This document shows positions 26,693 through 62,318 of a stretch of 64,000 nucleotides of DNA, one piece after another. The notes below the pieces were generated by a model, which had not been told where the DNA came from, searched no databases, and saw only the letters and a list, made by a program, of their open reading frames with translations. The translations under genes were made by a program, and so were the position numbers. Source of the DNA: Escherichia coli (GTDB lineage: Bacteria > Pseudomonadota > Gammaproteobacteria > Enterobacterales > Enterobacteriaceae); NCBI RefSeq assembly GCF_030384885.1, contig NZ_CP128613.1; one strand, 5' to 3'. Each line of letters begins with the position of its first letter. The first letter of the stretch is position 1.

Positions 26693-28008
26693 GTCAGGCT
26701 AAATCGAACAAAATGGGCGTCGTTCAGTTAACCATACTGACGATGGTCAACATGATGGGCTCCGGCATCATCATGCTGCCGACAAAGCTTGCCGAAGTTG
26801 GGACGATCTCAATAATCTCCTGGTTGGTGACAGCCGTAGGCTCAATGGCGCTGGCATGGGCATTCGCAAAATGCGGTATGTTCAGCCGTAAATCAGGCGG
26901 TATGGGCGGTTATGCCGAGTATGCTTTCGGTAAATCCGGTAACTTTATGGCGAACTATACCTACGGCGTCTCGCTGCTGATTGCTAACGTGGCGATTGCT
27001 ATTTCGGCAGTTGGTTACGGCACCGAACTGCTCGGCGCGAGTTTGTCACCAGTGCAGATTGGTCTGGCAACCATCGGAGTGCTGTGGATTTGTACCGTGG
27101 CTAACTTTGGTGGTGCGCGCATTACCGGGCAAATCAGTAGCATTACCGTGTGGGGGGTCATTATTCCGGTGGTAGGCCTGTGCGTTATCGGCTGGTTCTG
27201 GTTTAGCCCGACACTTTACGTTGATTCCTGGAATCCGCATCATGCACCGTTCTTCAGTGCGGTAGGTTCTTCCATCGCCATGACGCTGTGGGCTTTTCTT
27301 GGTCTGGAGTCTGCGTGTGCGAATACTGATGTAGTGGAAAACCCGGAACGTAATGTGCCAATCGCGGTACTCGGCGGTACGTTAGGTGCGGCGGTGATTT
27401 ATATCGTCTCCACCAACGTGATTGCCGGGATTGTGCCCAATATGGAGCTGGCAAATTCAACGGCACCATTTGGTCTGGCCTTCGCGCAAATGTTCACACC
27501 GGAAGTGGGTAAAGTCATTATGGCGCTGATGGTGATGTCCTGCTGCGGTTCACTGCTTGGCTGGCAGTTCACCATTGCCCAGGTGTTTAAATCTTCATCT
27601 GATGAAGGCTACTTCCCTAAAATTTTCTCCCGTGTAACCAAAGTGGATGCACCGGTTCAGGGGATGTTGACCATTGTGATTATTCAGAGTGGATTGGCAC
27701 TGATGACCATTAGCCCGTCACTGAACAGCCAGTTCAACGTGCTGGTTAACCTGGCCGTGGTGACCAATATCATTCCGTATATCCTGTCGATGGCGGCATT
27801 AGTCATTATTCAGAAGGTCGCCAATGTGCCACCATCAAAAGCGAAAGTAGCAAACTTTGTTGCCTTTGTTGGTGCGATGTACAGTTTCTATGCGCTGTAC
27901 TCATCCGGGGAAGAAGCCATGCTGTACGGTTCCATCGTGACTTTCCTTGGTTGGACACTGTATGGTCTGGTATCACCACGCTTTGAACTGAAAAACAAAC
28001 ACGGTTAA
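26689..28008 (+). CDS. potE: Putrescine:ornithine antiporter
   Basis: 439-aa APC-family membrane ORF overlapping speF stop (ATGA). Confidence 0.9.
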   Translation: MSQAKSNKMGVVQLTILTMVNMMGSGIIMLPTKLAEVGTISIISWLVTAVGSMALAWAFAKCGMFSRKSGGMGGYAEYAFGKSGNFMANYTYGVSLLIANVAIAISAVGYGTELLGASLSPVQIGLATIGVLWICTVANFGGARITGQISSITVWGVIIPVVGLCVIGWFWFSPTLYVDSWNPHHAPFFSAVGSSIAMTLWAFLGLESACANTDVVENPERNVPIAVLGGTLGAAVIYIVSTNVIAGIVPNMELANSTAPFGLAFAQMFTPEVGKVIMALMVMSCCGSLLGWQFTIAQVFKSSSDEGYFPKIFSRVTKVDAPVQGMLTIVIIQSGLALMTISPSLNSQFNVLVNLAVVTNIIPYILSMAALVIIQKVANVPPSKAKVANFVAFVGAMYSFYALYSSGEEAMLYGSIVTFLGWTLYGLVSPRFELKNKHG

Positions 28009-33478: not shown

Positions 33479-34009
33479 ATGGCTATCACTGGCATCTTTT
33501 TCGGCAGCGACACCGGTAATACCGAAAATATCGCAAAAATGATTCAAAAACAGCTTGGTAAAGACGTTGCCGATGTCCATGACATTGCAAAAAGCAGCAA
33601 AGAAGATCTGGAAGCATATGACATTCTGCTGCTGGGCATCCCAACCTGGTATTACGGCGAAGCGCAGTGTGACTGGGATGACTTCTTCCCGACTCTCGAA
33701 GAGATTGATTTCAATGGCAAACTGGTTGCGCTGTTTGGTTGTGGCGACCAGGAAGATTACGCTGAATACTTCTGTGACGCATTGGGCACCATCCGCGACA
33801 TCATTGAACCGCGCGGCGCAACTATCGTTGGTCACTGGCCAACTGCGGGCTACCACTTCGAAGCGTCAAAAGGTCTGGCAGATGACGACCACTTTGTCGG
33901 ACTGGCTATCGACGAAGATCGTCAGCCGGAACTGACCGCTGAACGTGTAGAAAAATGGGTTAAACAGATTTCTGAAGAATTGCATCTCGACGAAATTCTC
34001 AATGCCTGA
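33479..34009 (+). CDS. fldA: Flavodoxin 1
   Basis: ORF 33362..34009; start at [22 protein letters not shown] (176 aa), classic long-chain flavodoxin FMN-binding loop. Confidence 0.95.
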
Positions 34010-34214
34010 TGTGATGCGGCGTAGACTCATGTCTACGCCGTATTAATAGATAATGCCAATCAAAATAATTGCTACAAATTTGTAACTTTTGCTGTTGTAC
34101 CTGTACAATGTCCCGGTGTTCAAGTGGCCTTGCCGTTGTAAATGTAAGCTGTGCCACGTTTTTATTAACAATATTTGCCAGGGACTTGTGGTTTTCATTT
34201 AGGCGTGGCAATTC

Positions 34215-34233
34215 TATAATGATACGCATTATC
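34215..34233. promoter_or_regulatory. Fur box overlapping fur/uof promoter (autoregulation)
   Basis: tataatgatacgcattatc matches the 19-bp Fur consensus GATAATGATAATCATTATC at about 16/19 positions. Confidence 0.65.
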
Positions 34234-34305
34234 TCAAGAGCAAATTCTGTCACTTCTCCTAATGAAGTGAACCGCTTAGTAACAGGACAGATTCCGCATG
34301 ACTGA
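34219..34305 (+). CDS. uof: fur upstream leader ORF
   Basis: 28-codon ORF MIRIISRANSVTSPNEVNRLVTGQIPHD whose stop overlaps the fur start; embedded in ORF 34069..34305. Confidence 0.75.
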   Translation: MIRIISRANSVTSPNEVNRLVTGQIPHD

Positions 34306-34744
34306 TAACAATACCGCCCTAAAGAAAGCTGGCCTGAAAGTAACGCTTCCTCGTTTAAAAATCCTGGAAGTTCTTCAGGAGCCGGACAACCATCACGTCA
34401 GTGCGGAAGATTTATACAAACGTCTGATCGATATGGGTGAAGAAATTGGTCTGGCTACGGTATATCGCGTACTGAACCAGTTCGACGACGCTGGTATCGT
34501 CACCCGCCACAATTTTGAAGGCGGTAAATCCGTATTTGAACTGACACAGCAACATCACCACGATCACCTGATCTGCCTCGACTGCGGCAAGGTTATCGAA
34601 TTTAGTGATGATTCCATCGAAGCGCGTCAGCGTGAAATTGCCGCAAAACATGGCATTCGCCTGACTAACCACAGTCTCTATCTTTACGGTCACTGTGCCG
34701 AAGGCGATTGCCGCGAAGATGAGCACGCGCACGAAGGCAAATAA
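34298..34744 (+). CDS. fur: Ferric uptake regulator
   Basis: 148-aa ORF MTDNNTALKKAGLKVTLPRLKILEVL... with C-terminal His/Cys-rich metal site. Confidence 0.95.
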   Translation: MTDNNTALKKAGLKVTLPRLKILEVLQEPDNHHVSAEDLYKRLIDMGEEIGLATVYRVLNQFDDAGIVTRHNFEGGKSVFELTQQHHHDHLICLDCGKVIEFSDDSIEARQREIAAKHGIRLTNHSLYLYGHCAEGDCREDEHAHEGK

Positions 34745-34760
34745 GCCAGCCTGAACGAGA

Positions 34761-34788
34761 AAAGCCAACCTGCGGGTTGGCTTTTTTA
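34761..34788 (+). terminator. Rho-independent terminator of fur
   Basis: aagccaacctgcgggttggctttttt hairpin plus T-run. Confidence 0.7.
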
Positions 34789-34827
34789 TGCAAGGGAAAT
34801 AAGAAAAGCGAGAGTTACAGCTCTCAC

Positions 34828-48106: not shown

Positions 48107-48183
48107 GGCTACGTAGCTCAGTTGGTTAGAGCACATCACTCATAATGATGGGGTCACAGGTTCGAATCCCGTCGTAGCCACCA
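48107..48183 (+). tRNA. metT: tRNA-Met (elongator, anticodon CAT)
   Basis: ggctacgtagctcagttggttagagcacatcactCATaatgatggggtcacaggttcgaatcccgtcgtagccacca; cloverleaf with CCA end. Confidence 0.95.
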
Positions 48184-48191
48184 TCTTTTTT

Positions 48192-48276
48192 GCGGGAGTG
48201 GCGAAATTGGTAGACGCACCAGATTTAGGTTCTGGCGCCGCAAGGTGTGCGAGTTCAAGTCTCGCCTCCCGCACCA
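48192..48276 (+). tRNA. leuW: tRNA-Leu (long variable arm; anticodon read as TAG, assigned by eye)
   Basis: gcgggagtggcgaaattggtagacgcaccagatttaggttctggcgccgcaaggtgtgcgagttcaagtctcgcctcccgcacca (85 nt). Confidence 0.9.
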
Positions 48277-48299
48277 TTCACCAGAAAGCGTTGTACGGA

Positions 48300-48374
48300 T
48301 GGGGTATCGCCAAGCGGTAAGGCACCGGTTTTTGATACCGGCATTCCCTGGTTCGAATCCAGGTACCCCAGCCA
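48300..48374 (+). tRNA. glnU: tRNA-Gln (anticodon TTG)
   Basis: tggggtatcgccaagcggtaaggcaccggtttTTGataccggcattccctggttcgaatccaggtaccccagcca. Confidence 0.9.
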
Positions 48375-48407
48375 TCTTCTTCGAGTAAGCGGTTCACCGC
48401 CCGGTTA

Positions 48408-48482
48408 TTGGGGTATCGCCAAGCGGTAAGGCACCGGTTTTTGATACCGGCATTCCCTGGTTCGAATCCAGGTACCCCAGCC
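48408..48482 (+). tRNA. glnW: tRNA-Gln (anticodon TTG), second copy
   Basis: Identical 75-nt sequence to 48300..48374. Confidence 0.9.
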
Positions 48483-48497
48483 ATCGAAGAAACAATC

Positions 48498-48574
48498 TGG
48501 CTACGTAGCTCAGTTGGTTAGAGCACATCACTCATAATGATGGGGTCACAGGTTCGAATCCCGTCGTAGCCACC
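48498..48574 (+). tRNA. metU: tRNA-Met (elongator, anticodon CAT), second copy
   Basis: Identical to 48107..48183. Confidence 0.95.
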
Positions 48575-48623
48575 AAATTCTGAATGTGTCGAATGCGTTC
48601 GGCAAATTCACAAACCAATTTGT

Positions 48624-48698
48624 TGGGGTATCGCCAAGCGGTAAGGCACCGGATTCTGATTCCGGCATTCCGAGGTTCGAATCCTCGTACCCCAGCCA
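48624..48698 (+). tRNA. glnV: tRNA-Gln (anticodon CTG)
   Basis: tggggtatcgccaagcggtaaggcaccggattCTGattccggcattccgaggttcgaatcctcgtaccccagcca. Confidence 0.9.
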
Positions 48699-48735
48699 AT
48701 TTATTCAAGACGCTTACCTTGTAAGTGCACCCAGT

Positions 48736-48810
48736 TGGGGTATCGCCAAGCGGTAAGGCACCGGATTCTGATTCCGGCATTCCGAGGTTCGAATCCTCGT
48801 ACCCCAGCCA
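48736..48810 (+). tRNA. glnX: tRNA-Gln (anticodon CTG), second copy
   Basis: Identical 75-nt sequence to 48624..48698. Confidence 0.9.
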
Positions 48811-50284: not shown

Positions 50285-51709
50285 ATGACCAAAAAACTCC
50301 ATATTAAAACCTGGGGCTGTCAGATGAACGAGTACGATTCATCGAAGATGGCCGATCTGCTGGATGCCACCCACGGCTTTCAACTGACCGACGTGGCGGA
50401 AGAAGCGGATGTGCTGCTGCTGAACACCTGCTCAATCCGCGAGAAGGCTCAGGAAAAAGTCTTCCATCAGTTGGGTCGCTGGAAACTGTTAAAAGAGAAG
50501 AATCCAGACCTGATTATCGGCGTCGGCGGCTGCGTGGCATCGCAAGAAGGCGAGCACATTCGCCAGCGCGCCCACTATGTTGATATTATTTTTGGGCCGC
50601 AAACGCTGCACCGTCTGCCGGAGATGATCAACTCCGTGCGCGGCGACCGCAGCCCGGTTGTAGATATCAGCTTCCCGGAAATCGAGAAGTTTGACCGTCT
50701 GCCGGAACCGCGTGCCGAAGGACCAACCGCGTTTGTCTCCATCATGGAAGGCTGCAATAAATATTGCACCTACTGCGTAGTGCCTTACACCCGTGGTGAA
50801 GAGGTAAGCCGTCCTTCCGACGATATTCTGTTTGAGATTGCCCAGCTTGCGGCTCAGGGCGTGCGTGAAGTCAACCTGCTCGGTCAGAACGTGAACGCCT
50901 GGCGTGGTGAGAACTACGACGGCACCACCGGATCGTTTGCCGATCTGCTGCGTCTGGTTGCGGCGATCGACGGGATCGATCGTATTCGCTTTACCACCAG
51001 CCATCCGATCGAATTCACCGACGATATCATCGAAGTGTACCGCGACACGCCGGAGCTGGTGAGCTTCCTGCATCTGCCGGTTCAGAGCGGTTCCGATCGC
51101 ATTCTAAACCTGATGGGACGTACCCACACGGCGCTGGAGTACAAAGCGATCATCCGTAAATTGCGTGCGGCGCGTCCTGATATTCAGATCAGTTCTGACT
51201 TCATTGTCGGCTTCCCGGGCGAAACCACCGAAGACTTCGAAAAAACGATGAAGCTGATTGCCGACGTCAATTTCGACATGAGCTACAGCTTTATCTTCTC
51301 TGCACGTCCGGGTACGCCTGCCGCCGATATGGTTGATGATGTTCCGGAAGAAGAGAAGAAGCAGCGTCTGTATATTCTGCAAGAGCGCATTAATCAGCAA
51401 GCGATGGCATGGAGCCGCCGTATGCTCGGCACCACCCAGCGTATTCTGGTAGAAGGTACATCGCGTAAGAGCATCATGGAGCTTTCCGGTCGTACTGAAA
51501 ATAACCGCGTGGTTAACTTCGAAGGCACACCGGATATGATCGGTAAATTCGTCGATGTAGAAATTACCGACGTCTACCCGAACTCTCTGCGCGGTAAAGT
51601 GGTGCGAACTGAAGATGAAATGGGTCTGCGCGTGGCAGAAACACCGGAATCGGTGATTGCCCGTACCCGCAAAGAAAATGACCTTGGCGTGGGTTATTAT
51701 CAGCCGTAA
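50285..51709 (+). CDS. miaB: tRNA-i6A37 methylthiotransferase
   Basis: 474-aa ORF with radical-SAM CxxxCxxC ([11 protein letters not shown]) and N-terminal MTTase cysteines. Confidence 0.95.
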
Positions 51710-56293: not shown

Positions 56294-57202
56294 ATGCAAT
56301 TACGTAAACCTGCCACAGCAATCCTGGCCCTGGCGCTTTCCGCAGGACTGGCACAGGCAGATGACGCCGCCCCGGCAGCAGGCAGTACGCTGGACAAAAT
56401 CGCCAAAAACGGTGTGATTGTCGTCGGTCACCGTGAATCTTCAGTACCTTTCTCTTATTACGACAATCAGCAAAAAGTGGTGGGTTACTCGCAGGATTAC
56501 TCCAACGCCATTGTTGAAGCAGTGAAAAAGAAACTCAACAAACCGGACTTGCAGGTGAAACTGATTCCGATCACCTCACAAAACCGTATTCCGCTGCTGC
56601 AAAACGGCACTTTCGATTTTGAATGTGGTTCAACCACCAACAACGTCGAACGCCAAAAACAGGCGGCTTTCTCTGACACTATTTTCGTGGTCGGTACGCG
56701 CCTGCTGACCAAAAAGGGCGGCGATATCAAAGATTTTGCCGACCTGAAAGGCAAAGCCGTAGTCGTTACTTCCGGCACTACCTCTGAAGTTTTGCTCAAC
56801 AAATTGAATGAAGAGCAAAAAATGAATATGCGCATCATCAGCGCCAAAGATCACGGTGACTCTTTCCGCACCCTGGAAAGCGGTCGTGCCGTTGCCTTTA
56901 TGATGGATGACGCCCTGCTGGCCGGTGAGCGAGCGAAAGCGAAGAAACCAGACAACTGGGAAATCGTCGGCAAGCCGCAGTCTCAGGAAGCCTACGGTTG
57001 CATGTTGCGTAAAGACGATCCGCAGTTCAAAAAGCTGATGGATGACACTATCGCTCAGGTGCAGACCTCCGGTGAAGCGGAAAAATGGTTTGATAAGTGG
57101 TTCAAAAATCCAATTCCGCCGAAAAACCTGAACATGAATTTCGAACTGTCGGACGAAATGAAAGCACTGTTCAAAGAACCGAATGACAAGGCACTGAACT
57201 AA
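56294..57202 (+). CDS. gltI: Glutamate/aspartate ABC transporter periplasmic binding protein
   Basis: ORF 56219..57202; start at MQLRKPATAILALALSAGLAQA (signal peptide), 302 aa. Confidence 0.9.
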   Translation: MQLRKPATAILALALSAGLAQADDAAPAAGSTLDKIAKNGVIVVGHRESSVPFSYYDNQQKVVGYSQDYSNAIVEAVKKKLNKPDLQVKLIPITSQNRIPLLQNGTFDFECGSTTNNVERQKQAAFSDTIFVVGTRLLTKKGGDIKDFADLKGKAVVVTSGTTSEVLLNKLNEEQKMNMRIISAKDHGDSFRTLESGRAVAFMMDDALLAGERAKAKKPDNWEIVGKPQSQEAYGCMLRKDDPQFKKLMDDTIAQVQTSGEAEKWFDKWFKNPIPPKNLNMNFELSDEMKALFKEPNDKALN

Positions 57203-57209
57203 TTACAAG

Positions 57210-57359
57210 AACCAGGGGCGGAAATTCTAGCCCTCTCGATTGTTACGTAGCACGGACAGACTATACGCCTGATGGTCGTTCCCCATCGGGCCTGAAAACC
57301 GCAATACGCTGGGTAACAATCTTCGAGGGTAGCAGTTAACGCTGCTACCCTCTTTTTTC
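57210..57359 (+). ncRNA. sroC: Candidate SroC-type sRNA from the gltI-gltJ intergenic region, ending at an intrinsic terminator
   Basis: 169-bp intergenic spacer inside the operon containing hairpin gagggtagcagttaacgctgctaccctc (57325..57352) plus T-run; SroC is described at this position. 5' end not determinable from sequence. Confidence 0.5.
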
Positions 57360-57371
57360 TGGAGTAGATTT

Positions 57372-59628: not shown

Positions 59629-60564
59629 ATGGCACTGCCAATTCTGTTAGATTGCGACCCAGGTCATGACGACGCTATCGCAATAGTTCTCGCCCTCGCC
59701 TCACCAGAGCTTGATGTCAAAGCAATTACGTCTTCCGCCGGAAACCAGACACCAGAAAAAACCTTACGCAATGTTCTGCGTATGCTGACCTTGCTTAATC
59801 GCACCGATATTCCGGTAGCAGGCGGCGCGGTAAAACCATTAATGCGTGATTTGATTATCGCGGACAATGTGCACGGCGAAAGCGGTCTCGACGGCCCGGC
59901 ATTACCGGAACCAACGTTCGCACCGCAAAACTGCACGGCGGTGGAGCTGATGGCGAAAACGCTGCGTGAAAGTAATGAACCCGTCACGATTGTTTCTACC
60001 GGACCGCAAACTAACGTTGCCTTGCTGCTCAATAGCCATCCGGAATTGCATAGCGAAATCGCCCGAATCGTGATTATGGGCGGCTCAATGGGGCTTGGTA
60101 ACTGGACGCCAGCGGCAGAATTTAATATTTACGTTGACCCAGAAGCGGCAGAAATTGTCTTCCAGTCAGGGATCCCGGTGGTGATGGCCGGTCTGGATGT
60201 TACTCACAAAGCGCAAATTTACGTTGAGGACACCGAGCGTTTCCGCACCATTGGTAACCCGGTTTCTACCATTGTTGCCGAACTGCTGGATTTCTTCCTC
60301 GAATATCACAAAGACGAAAAATGGGGCTTTGTGGGCGCACCGCTGCATGACCCATGCACCATCGCCTGGCTGTTGAAACCAGAGTTGTTTACCACTGTTG
60401 AGCGCTGGGTTGGCGTGGAAACACAGGGGAAATATACTCAGGGCATGACGGTTGTTGATTATTATTATCTGACAGGCAATAAACCGAATGTCACTGTAAT
60501 GGTCGATATTGATCGTCAGGGCTTTGTTGATTTACTGGCTGAGCGTCTGAAATTTTACGCTTAA
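59629..60564 (+). CDS. rihA: Pyrimidine-specific ribonucleoside hydrolase
   Basis: 311-aa ORF with N-terminal DCDPGHDDA nucleoside-hydrolase motif. Confidence 0.9.
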
Positions 60565-60647: not shown

Positions 60648-62318
60648 ATGGATAATGCAGAACTCGCCATTGGTATCGATCTCGGCACTACCAATAGTTT
60701 AATTGCCGTCTGGAAAGACGGTGCCGCGCAATTAATTCCAAATAAGTTCGGTGAATATTTAACACCATCCATCATTAGTATGGATGAAAATAATCATATT
60801 TTAGTCGGAAAACCGGCTGTATCACGGCGCACTTCGCATCCGGATAAAACCGCCGCATTATTTAAACGCTCAATGGGTAGTAATACCAACTGGCGGTTAG
60901 GCAGCGACACATTTAACGCACCAGAACTGTCCTCTTTGGTCTTACGTTCATTAAAAGAAGATGCCGAAGAATTTCTGCAACGTCCGATTAAAGATGTGGT
61001 GATCTCCGTTCCGGCTTATTTCAGTGATGAACAACGCAAGCATACCCGTTTAGCAGCGGAGCTAGCCGGGTTAAATGCGGTACGCTTAATTAATGAACCC
61101 ACAGCAGCTGCGATGGCTTATGGCCTGCATACTCAACAAAATACCCGCTCTCTGGTGTTTGATCTCGGTGGCGGCACGTTTGACGTCACGGTGCTCGAAT
61201 ACGCCACGCCGGTGATTGAAGTTCACGCCTCCGCTGGCGACAACTTTCTTGGCGGCGAAGATTTTACTCATATGCTGGTGGATGAAGTTTTAAAACGCGC
61301 CGCAGTGGCTAAAAACATGCTCAACGAAAGTGAGCTGGCAGCCCTGTACACCAGCGTGGAAGCGGCAAAATGCAGCAATCAATTACCGCTGCAAATTAGC
61401 TGGCAGTATCAGGAAGAAACGCGTGAGTGCGAATTTTACGAGAACGAACTGGAAGATTTGTGGTTGCCGCTGCTCAATCGCTTGCGAGTGCCGATTGAAC
61501 AGGCGTTGCGCGATGCACGTCTGAAGCCAAGTCAAATCGACAGTCTGGTGCTGGTTGGCGGCGCATCACAAATGCCGCTGGTGCAGCGAATCGCCGTGCG
61601 TCTGTTTGGCAAATTGCCATATCAAAGTTACGACCCGAGCACCATTGTCGCGCTGGGCGCAGCGATCCAGGCTGTCTGCCGCTTACGCAGCGAAGACATT
61701 GAAGAAGTGATCCTCACCGATATTTGCCCCTACTCCTTAGGTGTTGAAGTTAACCGCCAGGGCGTTTCCGGCATTTTCTCACCGATTATTGAACGAAACA
61801 CCACTGTACCGGTGTCGCGTGTAGAAACTTACTCGACCATGCACCCGGAACAGGATTCAATTACGGTTAACGTCTATCAGGGAGAAAACCACAAAGTTAA
61901 AAATAACATTCTGGTAGAATCCTTCGATGTGCCGTTGAAGAAAACCGGGGCTTATCAGTCGATTGATATTCGCTTTAGTTATGATATCAACGGGTTGCTT
62001 GAAGTTGACGTGCTTCTGGAAGACGGCAGCGTTAAGTCCAGAGTCATTAACCACAGCCCGGTAACGTTAAGTACCCAGCAAATTGAAGAGAGTCGGGCAA
62101 GGTTATCCGCATTAAAAATTTATCCGCGCGATATGCTTATCAACCGTACCTTTAAGGCCAAACTGGAAGAGTTGTGGGCGCGGGCGCTGGGTGACGAGCG
62201 AGAAGAGATCGGCCGGGTGATCACCGATTTTGATGCGGCGTTGCAGTCAAACGATATGGCCCGCGTCGATGAAGTTCGGCGACGAGCGAGCGATTATTTG
62301 GCTATTGAGATCCCTTAA
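60648..62318 (+). CDS. hscC: Hsp70-family chaperone HscC
   Basis: 556-aa ORF with Hsp70 ATPase signatures (IGIDLGTTNS, DLGGGTFD). Confidence 0.9.
   Translation: MDNAELAIGIDLGTTNSLIAVWKDGAAQLIPNKFGEYLTPSIISMDENNHILVGKPAVSRRTSHPDKTAALFKRSMGSNTNWRLGSDTFNAPELSSLVLRSLKEDAEEFLQRPIKDVVISVPAYFSDEQRKHTRLAAELAGLNAVRLINEPTAAAMAYGLHTQQNTRSLVFDLGGGTFDVTVLEYATPVIEVHASAGDNFLGGEDFTHMLVDEVLKRAAVAKNMLNESELAALYTSVEAAKCSNQLPLQISWQYQEETRECEFYENELEDLWLPLLNRLRVPIEQALRDARLKPSQIDSLVLVGGASQMPLVQRIAVRLFGKLPYQSYDPSTIVALGAAIQAVCRLRSEDIEEVILTDICPYSLGVEVNRQGVSGIFSPIIERNTTVPVSRVETYSTMHPEQDSITVNVYQGENHKVKNNILVESFDVPLKKTGAYQSIDIRFSYDINGLLEVDVLLEDGSVKSRVINHSPVTLSTQQIEESRARLSALKIYPRDMLINRTFKAKLEELWARALGDEREEIGRVITDFDAALQSNDMARVDEVRRRASDYLAIEIP

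Follow-up and report, generated by a model that had tools for sequence, protein, structure and literature searches.

The DNA upstream of fur in the stretch of Escherichia coli analysed here (64,000 nucleotides of contig NZ_CP128613.1, hereafter the window) is very probably the native and already known fur control region of the species, in which two layers of control share the same nucleotides and act on different transcripts. Fur is the master iron regulator, and the expression of its gene is a textbook example of layered control. An initial annotation of this sequence had proposed that the compact overlap of a Fur box with the start of the leader open reading frame (ORF) uof couples autorepression and leader translation to the translation of fur. 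This is supported in part: the elements were identified correctly, but the two controls appear to act on different mRNAs: the Fur box is placed on the promoter of transcripts that would start inside uof, while the leader ORF can be translated only from longer ones.

Results

The fur locus and its elements

The gene order at the locus is pgm, seqA, ybfF, ybfE, fldA, uof, fur, chiQ, chiP and glnS. Positions 33900-34800 are 100% identical to the annotated strain 2013C-4282, in which RefSeq calls both uof and fur, and are present in 5424 of the 5426 complete E. coli genomes. In K-12 MG1655 (uof b4637, fur b0683) the Fur box, the two promoter-like elements, the 28-codon uof, the 8-nt overlap and the fur start are all the same. 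Across the fldA-fur intergenic region and the leader the sole difference to K-12 is a T to C change at 34258, which lies in the loop of the leader hairpin and converts codon 14 of uof from Ser (UCU) to Pro (CCU). RefSeq lists the Pro14 variant as WP_001695552.1; most complete genomes have the K-12 form. At the DNA level the codon reads CCT here, while K-12 and E. albertii have TCT and another E. coli, strain SCPM-O-B-8794, has TTT (Phe). The features of the region are collected in Table 1. The intrinsic terminator of fur was missed by the consensus scan, probably because its T-run is drawn into the stem by A/U pairs. A search of Rfam found no family covering the fur leader; elsewhere in the window, at 48107-48807 and 57198-57360, it finds a seven-gene tRNA cluster and the sRNA sroC.

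Table 1. Features of the fur control region, in window coordinates.
Feature	Position	Strand	Evidence or detail
Hairpin just 3' of the fldA stop	34012..34045	+	-25.4 kcal/mol, z = -7.9; no U-tract
Conserved OxyR-like block ATAGATAATGCCAATCAAAATAATTGCTACAAATTTG	34046..34082	+	near-invariant across 9 genera; abuts the upstream promoter
Upstream promoter-like element	34080..34109	+	-35 TTGTAA 34080-34085, 18-nt spacer, -10 TACAAT 34104-34109; scan 9/12
Pfur core promoter	34192..34220	+	-35 TTTTCA 34192-34197, 17-nt spacer, -10 TATAAT 34215-34220; consensus scan 10/12
Fur box (operator) TATAATGATACGCATTATC	34215..34233	.	16/19 to consensus; 16.8 bits; among footprinted sites
uof, 28-codon fur leader ORF	34219..34305	+	ATG 34219-34221, TGA 34303-34305; NF011344; RefSeq
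UCA Ser6 codon of uof	34234..34236	+	read in the sequence; role from PMC11448259
GAGCAA, candidate RyhB seed target (tentative)	34238..34243	+	complementary to RyhB nt 42-47, including G44 and C45
Leader RNA hairpin	34250..34270	+	stem 34250-34256/34264-34270, loop 34257-34263; uof codons 11-18
fur Shine-Dalgarno AGGA	34284..34287	+	10 nt 5' of ATG; anti-SD duplex -4.0 kcal/mol
fur coding sequence, 148 aa	34298..34744	+	NF006999, 309 bits; RefSeq annotation
fur intrinsic terminator, 13-bp stem then U-run	34758..34787	+	-19.7 kcal/mol, z = -5.2

The Fur box is the highest-scoring site in the window

The Fur box differs from the consensus GATAATGATAATCATTATC at three of its 19 positions and is composed of the hexamers TATAAT (5/6 matches), GATACG (4/6) and, beyond the spacer C, ATTATC (6/6, inverted). 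No other site with three or fewer mismatches to the consensus occurs on either strand of the 64-kb window, for which the shuffle expectation is 0.01. The box was also scored with a symmetrised position weight matrix (PWM) trained on 15 other Fur-controlled promoters of K-12, represented by their best sites; fur was left out. Its score is the highest of the 127,964 19-mers in the window and falls within the range of 7.0-19.0 bits obtained by leave-one-out scoring of the training sites; these were chosen by consensus seeding, and the matrix is therefore tied to the consensus. The second and third highest scores, 14.3 bits (27129-27147) and 13.3 bits (60451-60469), both fall within long ORFs; the start of a 556-aa ORF, at 60648, is located ∼180 nt downstream of the latter match.

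A weak overlapping Fur site, scoring 3.2 bits, is located at 34209, 6 bp upstream of the box, an offset that fits the 6-bp clustering of Fur sites described in PMC2189734. The same study lists fur among 11 footprinted E. coli Fur sites. The near-consensus 19-bp Fur box of the initial annotation is confirmed, with exact coordinates, and is the site listed as the footprinted operator of fur.

At box positions 10-14 (34224-34228) the sequence is ACGCA instead of the consensus AATCA. Yet 69-72 of the 81 genomes compared below share the C at position 11 and the G at position 12, and these two positions seem to be under a constraint other than Fur binding, possibly as part of the Pfur discriminator or start-site region. 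Across genera the box scores 16.8 bits in Escherichia, most Citrobacter and Salmonella, 14.5 bits in Enterobacter and less than 10 bits elsewhere.

The Fur box lies on the −10 element of Pfur

The first six bases of the Fur box constitute a perfect −10 hexamer, which is paired across 17 nt with the −35 element TTTTCA, and the last two bases of this hexamer, A and T, double as the first two of the uof start codon. The arrangement TTTTCA, 17 nt, TATAAT(G) is exact or near-exact in most of the 81 Enterobacterales sequences and is retained also in Erwinia, Pantoea, Dickeya, Hafnia and Edwardsiella. In Yersinia enterocolitica Pfur is likewise covered at its −10 by a Fur box, TATAATGAGACGCAATTGA, located ∼84 nt upstream of fur with fldA further upstream; the authors who studied that promoter report no uof and a box with only 58% identity to the consensus (PMC7867234).

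The geometry of the promoter would place the start of Pfur transcripts at ∼34226-34228, within uof and 3' of its AUG. This is consistent with Jaworska et al. (PMC7867234), who report two fur start sites within the uof ORF, a separate uof start site upstream and a Fur box over the −10 of Pfur-a. Sinha et al. (PMC6191717) likewise place the Pfur starts inside uof, the Fur box over the −10 of Pfur-a and Puof upstream. The start-site positions used here are based on these two secondary statements together with promoter geometry, and a search for fur start-site coordinates in Cappable-seq data returned no match. As Pfur starts inside uof, the short transcripts that Fur represses would lack the uof start codon, and translation of the leader ORF would in consequence be limited to longer transcripts, derived from the upstream promoter or from fldA.

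The overlap of the Fur box with the uof ATG, as claimed initially, is real, but the box sits on the −10 of a promoter that starts inside uof. The −10 hexamer and the Fur consensus make this overlap unavoidable, and it is not a feature of design. An ATG arises whenever TATAAT is followed by G, and it also arises at positions 5-7 of the Fur consensus (GATA-ATG-ATAATC...). Genomes without uof, including those of Pantoea, Klebsiella oxytoca and Y. enterocolitica, contain TATAATG as well.

Upstream elements and longer transcripts

The upstream promoter-like element, whose segment CTGTACAAT is invariant in 9 genera, is a candidate for Puof that would generate transcripts containing the whole uof ORF. 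The conserved block that abuts it resembles an OxyR site when judged by eye. Activation of fur by OxyR is reported in the literature. Both the promoter-like element and the OxyR-like block are near-invariant also in genera that do not have uof.

The stable hairpin directly 3' of fldA has arms that covary between genera, with complementarity kept while the sequence has changed. It is probably a leaky terminator, or else a processing or stability element, that would permit read-through from fldA into uof-fur. Cotranscription of fldA and fur is stated in the literature (including PMC7867234), and Conway et al. describe ybfE-fldA read-through transcripts.

The hexamer TACAAT of the upstream promoter-like element, together with the G that follows, also generates an ATG (34108-34110) that shares the frame of uof; this frame is open from 34069 onwards and would give a 65-codon extension. 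The upstream open stretch is 37 codons long in E. albertii and widely variable elsewhere, and the extension is probably due to chance.

The uof reading frame and the fur initiation region

The uof ORF comprises 28 sense codons (MIRIISRANSVTSPNEVNRLVTGQIPHD). The fur ATG is contained within the last two of these (cATGac), generating an 8-nt overlap (ATGACTGA) that is conserved as a string in 77 of the 81 sequences. The ORF and its overlap with fur stand as initially described, although the uof stop does not overlap the fur ATG itself; it follows 2 nt later and occupies fur nt +6 to +8. The identification of the ORF as uof is secure, as it matches the NCBIfam equivalog model NF011344, 'fur leader peptide', over the full length (1-28) with 81.3 bits against a cut-off of 71, and is annotated by RefSeq in the fully identical genome. 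Among a spread sample of E. coli, uof is annotated in all 40 of 40 genomes. When the interior of the leader was shuffled an ORF remained open to the fur start in ∼25% of the trials, and the Shine-Dalgarno (SD) sequence of uof is weak (−3.6 kcal/mol). The ORF thus owes its standing to annotation, the literature and partial conservation, because taken by itself it is no better than chance.

The conserved parts of uof coincide with other elements. Read in triplets, the Fur box supplies the first five codons (MIRII), where the consensus box would encode MIIII. The last approximately ten codons overlie the fur ribosome-binding site (RBS) block AACAGGACAGAUUCCGCAUGACUGA, which is conserved whether uof is present or not. 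As every conserved segment matches a noncoding element, namely the box, the hairpin or the RBS, the uof peptide appears to be irrelevant. Selection at the peptide level was considered and rejected on the same grounds.

The GGA of the fur SD can pair with UCC at 34293-34295 to form a 3-bp hairpin. This was the sole consensus structure found by RNAalifold on the MAFFT alignment, and it is near-invariant and hence carries no covariation signal.

Decoding of the Ser6 UCA codon of uof is reported to depend on MiaB-modified tRNA-Ser, in what has been termed 'iron-responsive decoding' (PMC11448259). Codon 6 is CCA in Enterobacter and Kosakonia. The miaB gene itself is located in the same window, at 50285-51709 on the plus strand, 16 kb from fur (TIGR01574, 737 bits).

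The uof frame is patchily conserved

The frame was surveyed in 80 Enterobacterales fur loci, one genome per species, giving 81 sequences for comparison. The initial annotation had made its case for uof depend in part on conservation of the frame in related species, and this proved to be divided: 38 of the 81 sequences keep a uof-like ORF with its stop at fur +5 and a length of 28, 29 or 30 codons (79, 82 or 85 nt), whereas the frame is broken in Salmonella, K. oxytoca and others. All length changes among the genomes that keep the frame are multiples of 3. Seven sequences, including those of Mangrovibacter, Cedecea neteri and Buttiauxella B2, have an ORF that terminates at the alternative stop in ATGA; six loci (L022, L027, L030, L054, L056 and L065, from Mangrovibacter, Cedecea and Buttiauxella B2) use a different frame and terminate at the TGA of ATGA on the fur start. 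A further four (Buttiauxella izardii, Buttiauxella agrestis, Dryocola and Enterobacter R1) have an ORF that continues in frame into fur, and at loci L057, L058, L060 and L063 such run-on translation would yield an N-terminally extended Fur from long transcripts. The ORF stops at least 18 nt before fur in 24 of the 81, and in the other eight no ATG is present at this position.

An ORF open to the fur start is found in 48 of the 64 Enterobacteriaceae-like sequences, compared with ∼25% in shuffles, and in 1 of the 17 sequences outside this group. In K. oxytoca, Raoultella and Atlantibacter the uof frame is absent, the ORF being cut short, and in Erwinia, Pantoea and Dickeya genomes it is also absent, save for one Erwinia MAG. 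A 1-nt deletion that leaves a 16-codon ORF ending 30 nt before fur occurs in Salmonella enterica subsp. arizonae, Citrobacter sedlakii, Citrobacter sp. Awk 4 and Enterobacter sp. Bisph1.

In S. enterica subsp. arizonae (L028) and in four further assemblies (L095-L098), which have the same 150-aa Fur, the Fur box is identical to that of E. coli, and the leader also shares the −35 and −10 elements, the hairpin stem, the fur RBS and the overlap string. It differs in the 1-nt deletion in the loop, in its 16-codon ORF and in having no overlap between this ORF and fur (L028:1122-1200; L095-L098:322-400). That the frame is broken in Salmonella and Klebsiella, while the promoter, the Fur box and the hairpin are kept, indicates that coupling is dispensable in close relatives. 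On its distribution among these genomes uof is a young, lineage-restricted and dispensable addition to an older promoter and operator.

A conserved hairpin in the leader

The only stable structure of the leader is the hairpin within uof (−8.5 kcal/mol, z = −4.3). A hairpin forms at the same place in all Enterobacteriaceae-like sequences that were folded, with differing stems: CACUUC/GAAGUG, ACUUCC/GGAAGU, GCUCC/GGAGC, GCUCA/UGAGC and GCCC/GGGC. The divergent hairpin arms were misaligned in the MAFFT alignment, and per-sequence folds and a covariance model were used instead. In the covariance-model alignment, which was fitted to the structure and is thus biased in favour of pairing, 87.6% of the cells are paired, compared with 31-47% when the partner arm is slid. 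Both sides have changed in six of the eight pairs, and compensatory changes were found in 31 cells versus 0-9 in the slid controls. None of 500 shuffles reached the score of the hairpin.

The 1-nt deletions that break the frame and the Ser/Pro/Phe polymorphism at codon 14 all map to the loop. By the measure of these alignments the hairpin is better conserved than the uof frame and is kept even where the frame is broken. The fur-leader papers that we examined make no mention of this hairpin. We consider it a tentative possibility that the hairpin, and not the uof frame, reflects the strongest RNA-level selection in the leader, and also that selection keeps any frame from the TATAATG ATG that reaches fur, and not uof in particular. 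The regulatory unit would then be a structured leader crossed by ribosomes, in which the hairpin would act in cis on stability, Hfq binding or coupling.

Coupling and RyhB

Reviews citing Vecerek 2007 state that translation of fur is coupled to translation of uof and that RyhB blocks uof initiation. The coupling asserted in the initial annotation accordingly agrees with these accounts, but the leader mechanism would be confined to transcripts other than those repressed by Fur. The close spacing of stop and start that is typical of coupled cistrons is present, with the stop 5-7 nt past the A of the fur ATG. Folding of the short and the long leader in search of a structure that masks the RBS gave z = 0.2 and 0.0, no better than shuffles. 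The fur SD is touched only by the invariant 3-bp GGA/UCC helix, and the conserved hairpin stops 14 nt short of it. As no significant structure occludes the SD, the sequence does not reveal a structural basis for obligatory coupling.

The importance of RyhB nucleotides G44 and C45 is stated in PMC6191717. The hexamer GAGCAA is the sole stretch of at least 6 nt that would form exclusively Watson-Crick pairs with a RyhB segment involving these two nucleotides, and GGCAAU at 34207-34212 is a second 6-nt match that involves them; both classes of transcript contain GAGCAA, and only the long ones contain GGCAAU. Local 30-nt scans for pairing with the RyhB core gave a best value of ∼−13 kcal/mol against a background with mean −10.6 and s.d. 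4.0, singling out no site, and when full-length RyhB was folded against the leader the long duplexes were no better than those of shuffles. As pairing is indistinguishable from background, no RyhB site is claimed here. The published RyhB-uof model has itself been described as not computationally predictable (PMC3018821). Sinha et al. (2018; PMC6191717) found that RyhB lowers the short fur mRNA and leaves the uof-fur mRNA unaffected, and an effect on the short mRNA only is unexplained by a simple model of blocked uof initiation.

The thrL and ivbL leaders under GcvB control (PMC7534054) resemble uof in that a short upstream ORF has its initiation blocked by an sRNA and expression of the downstream gene is lowered. 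These leaders act by transcription attenuation, whereas uof reportedly acts by translational coupling and has its start codon within the −10 element and the operator.

Discussion

The present analysis supplies the anatomy of the region, the statistics on the Fur box, the family memberships and the data on how far promoter, hairpin and frame are conserved. The Fur footprint, the start sites, the coupling and the effects of RyhB and MiaB are taken from the literature. We infer the exact position of the Pfur start, the identity of Puof and the class of transcript that supplies most Fur.

The data are best accommodated by two layers of control that share DNA and operate on separate mRNAs. Fe-Fur bound to the box, the operator of the sigma-70 promoter Pfur, would exclude RNA polymerase and thereby exert the mild autorepression described in the literature. 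Pfur transcripts, starting as predicted, would be devoid of the uof AUG and would retain just the leader hairpin and the SD of fur itself. The longer transcripts that arise from the upstream promoter or by read-through from fldA would carry the box as RNA, and on these the AUG at 34219 would start uof, which ends at a UGA 5 nt into fur. According to the published accounts of the leader, ribosomes finishing uof drive initiation at fur, RyhB with Hfq blocks uof initiation, and decoding of the leader needs MiaB-modified tRNA.

The initial annotation implied that the Fur box and uof are a single device on one transcript, jointly gating the same fur mRNA. The physical overlap of box and ATG is indeed genuine and both layers respond to iron; moreover, a roadblock formed by Fur at +100 of the upstream transcription unit might conceivably halt elongation of long transcripts. 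However, the box coincides with a conserved −10 element, and Pfur starts inside uof and would yield mRNAs without the uof AUG. The overlap, in addition, is forced by the sequence, and TATAATG is also found where there is no uof. We therefore regard the combined device as very improbable. A different view, that uof is an accidental ORF with no regulatory function of its own and that what is conserved is the promoter, the operator, the hairpin and the fur RBS, has more in its favour than the weak SD and the frequency with which such a frame is open by chance. Each conserved part of the peptide reflects a noncoding constraint, codon 14 can be S, P or F within E. coli, and the frame has been lost through loop deletions or shortening in several genera and is open in only 1 of 17 sequences outside the Enterobacteriaceae. 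Against this, published experiments report that uof is translated and that translation of fur depends on it. The open frame is also enriched (48/64 against ∼25%) in approximately ten groups whose middle regions share less than 75% identity, and the length differences among genomes that keep it are multiples of 3. An accidental origin of this kind is thus improbable, and two layers of control on separate mRNAs remain the preferred reading.

All of the central points of this reading are already published. What is mildly new is comparative: promoter and operator dictate the start codon of uof, its frame is conserved only in patches and has been broken in Salmonella, and the leader hairpin covaries. 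The analysis sharpens one point that is blurred in short summaries, namely that uof cannot be translated from the mRNAs of the promoter governed by the Fur operator. As the mRNAs repressed by Fur would be without uof, the contribution of uof-containing versus uof-less transcripts to the output of Fur becomes a quantitative question, and the same applies to the effect of RyhB on the short mRNA.
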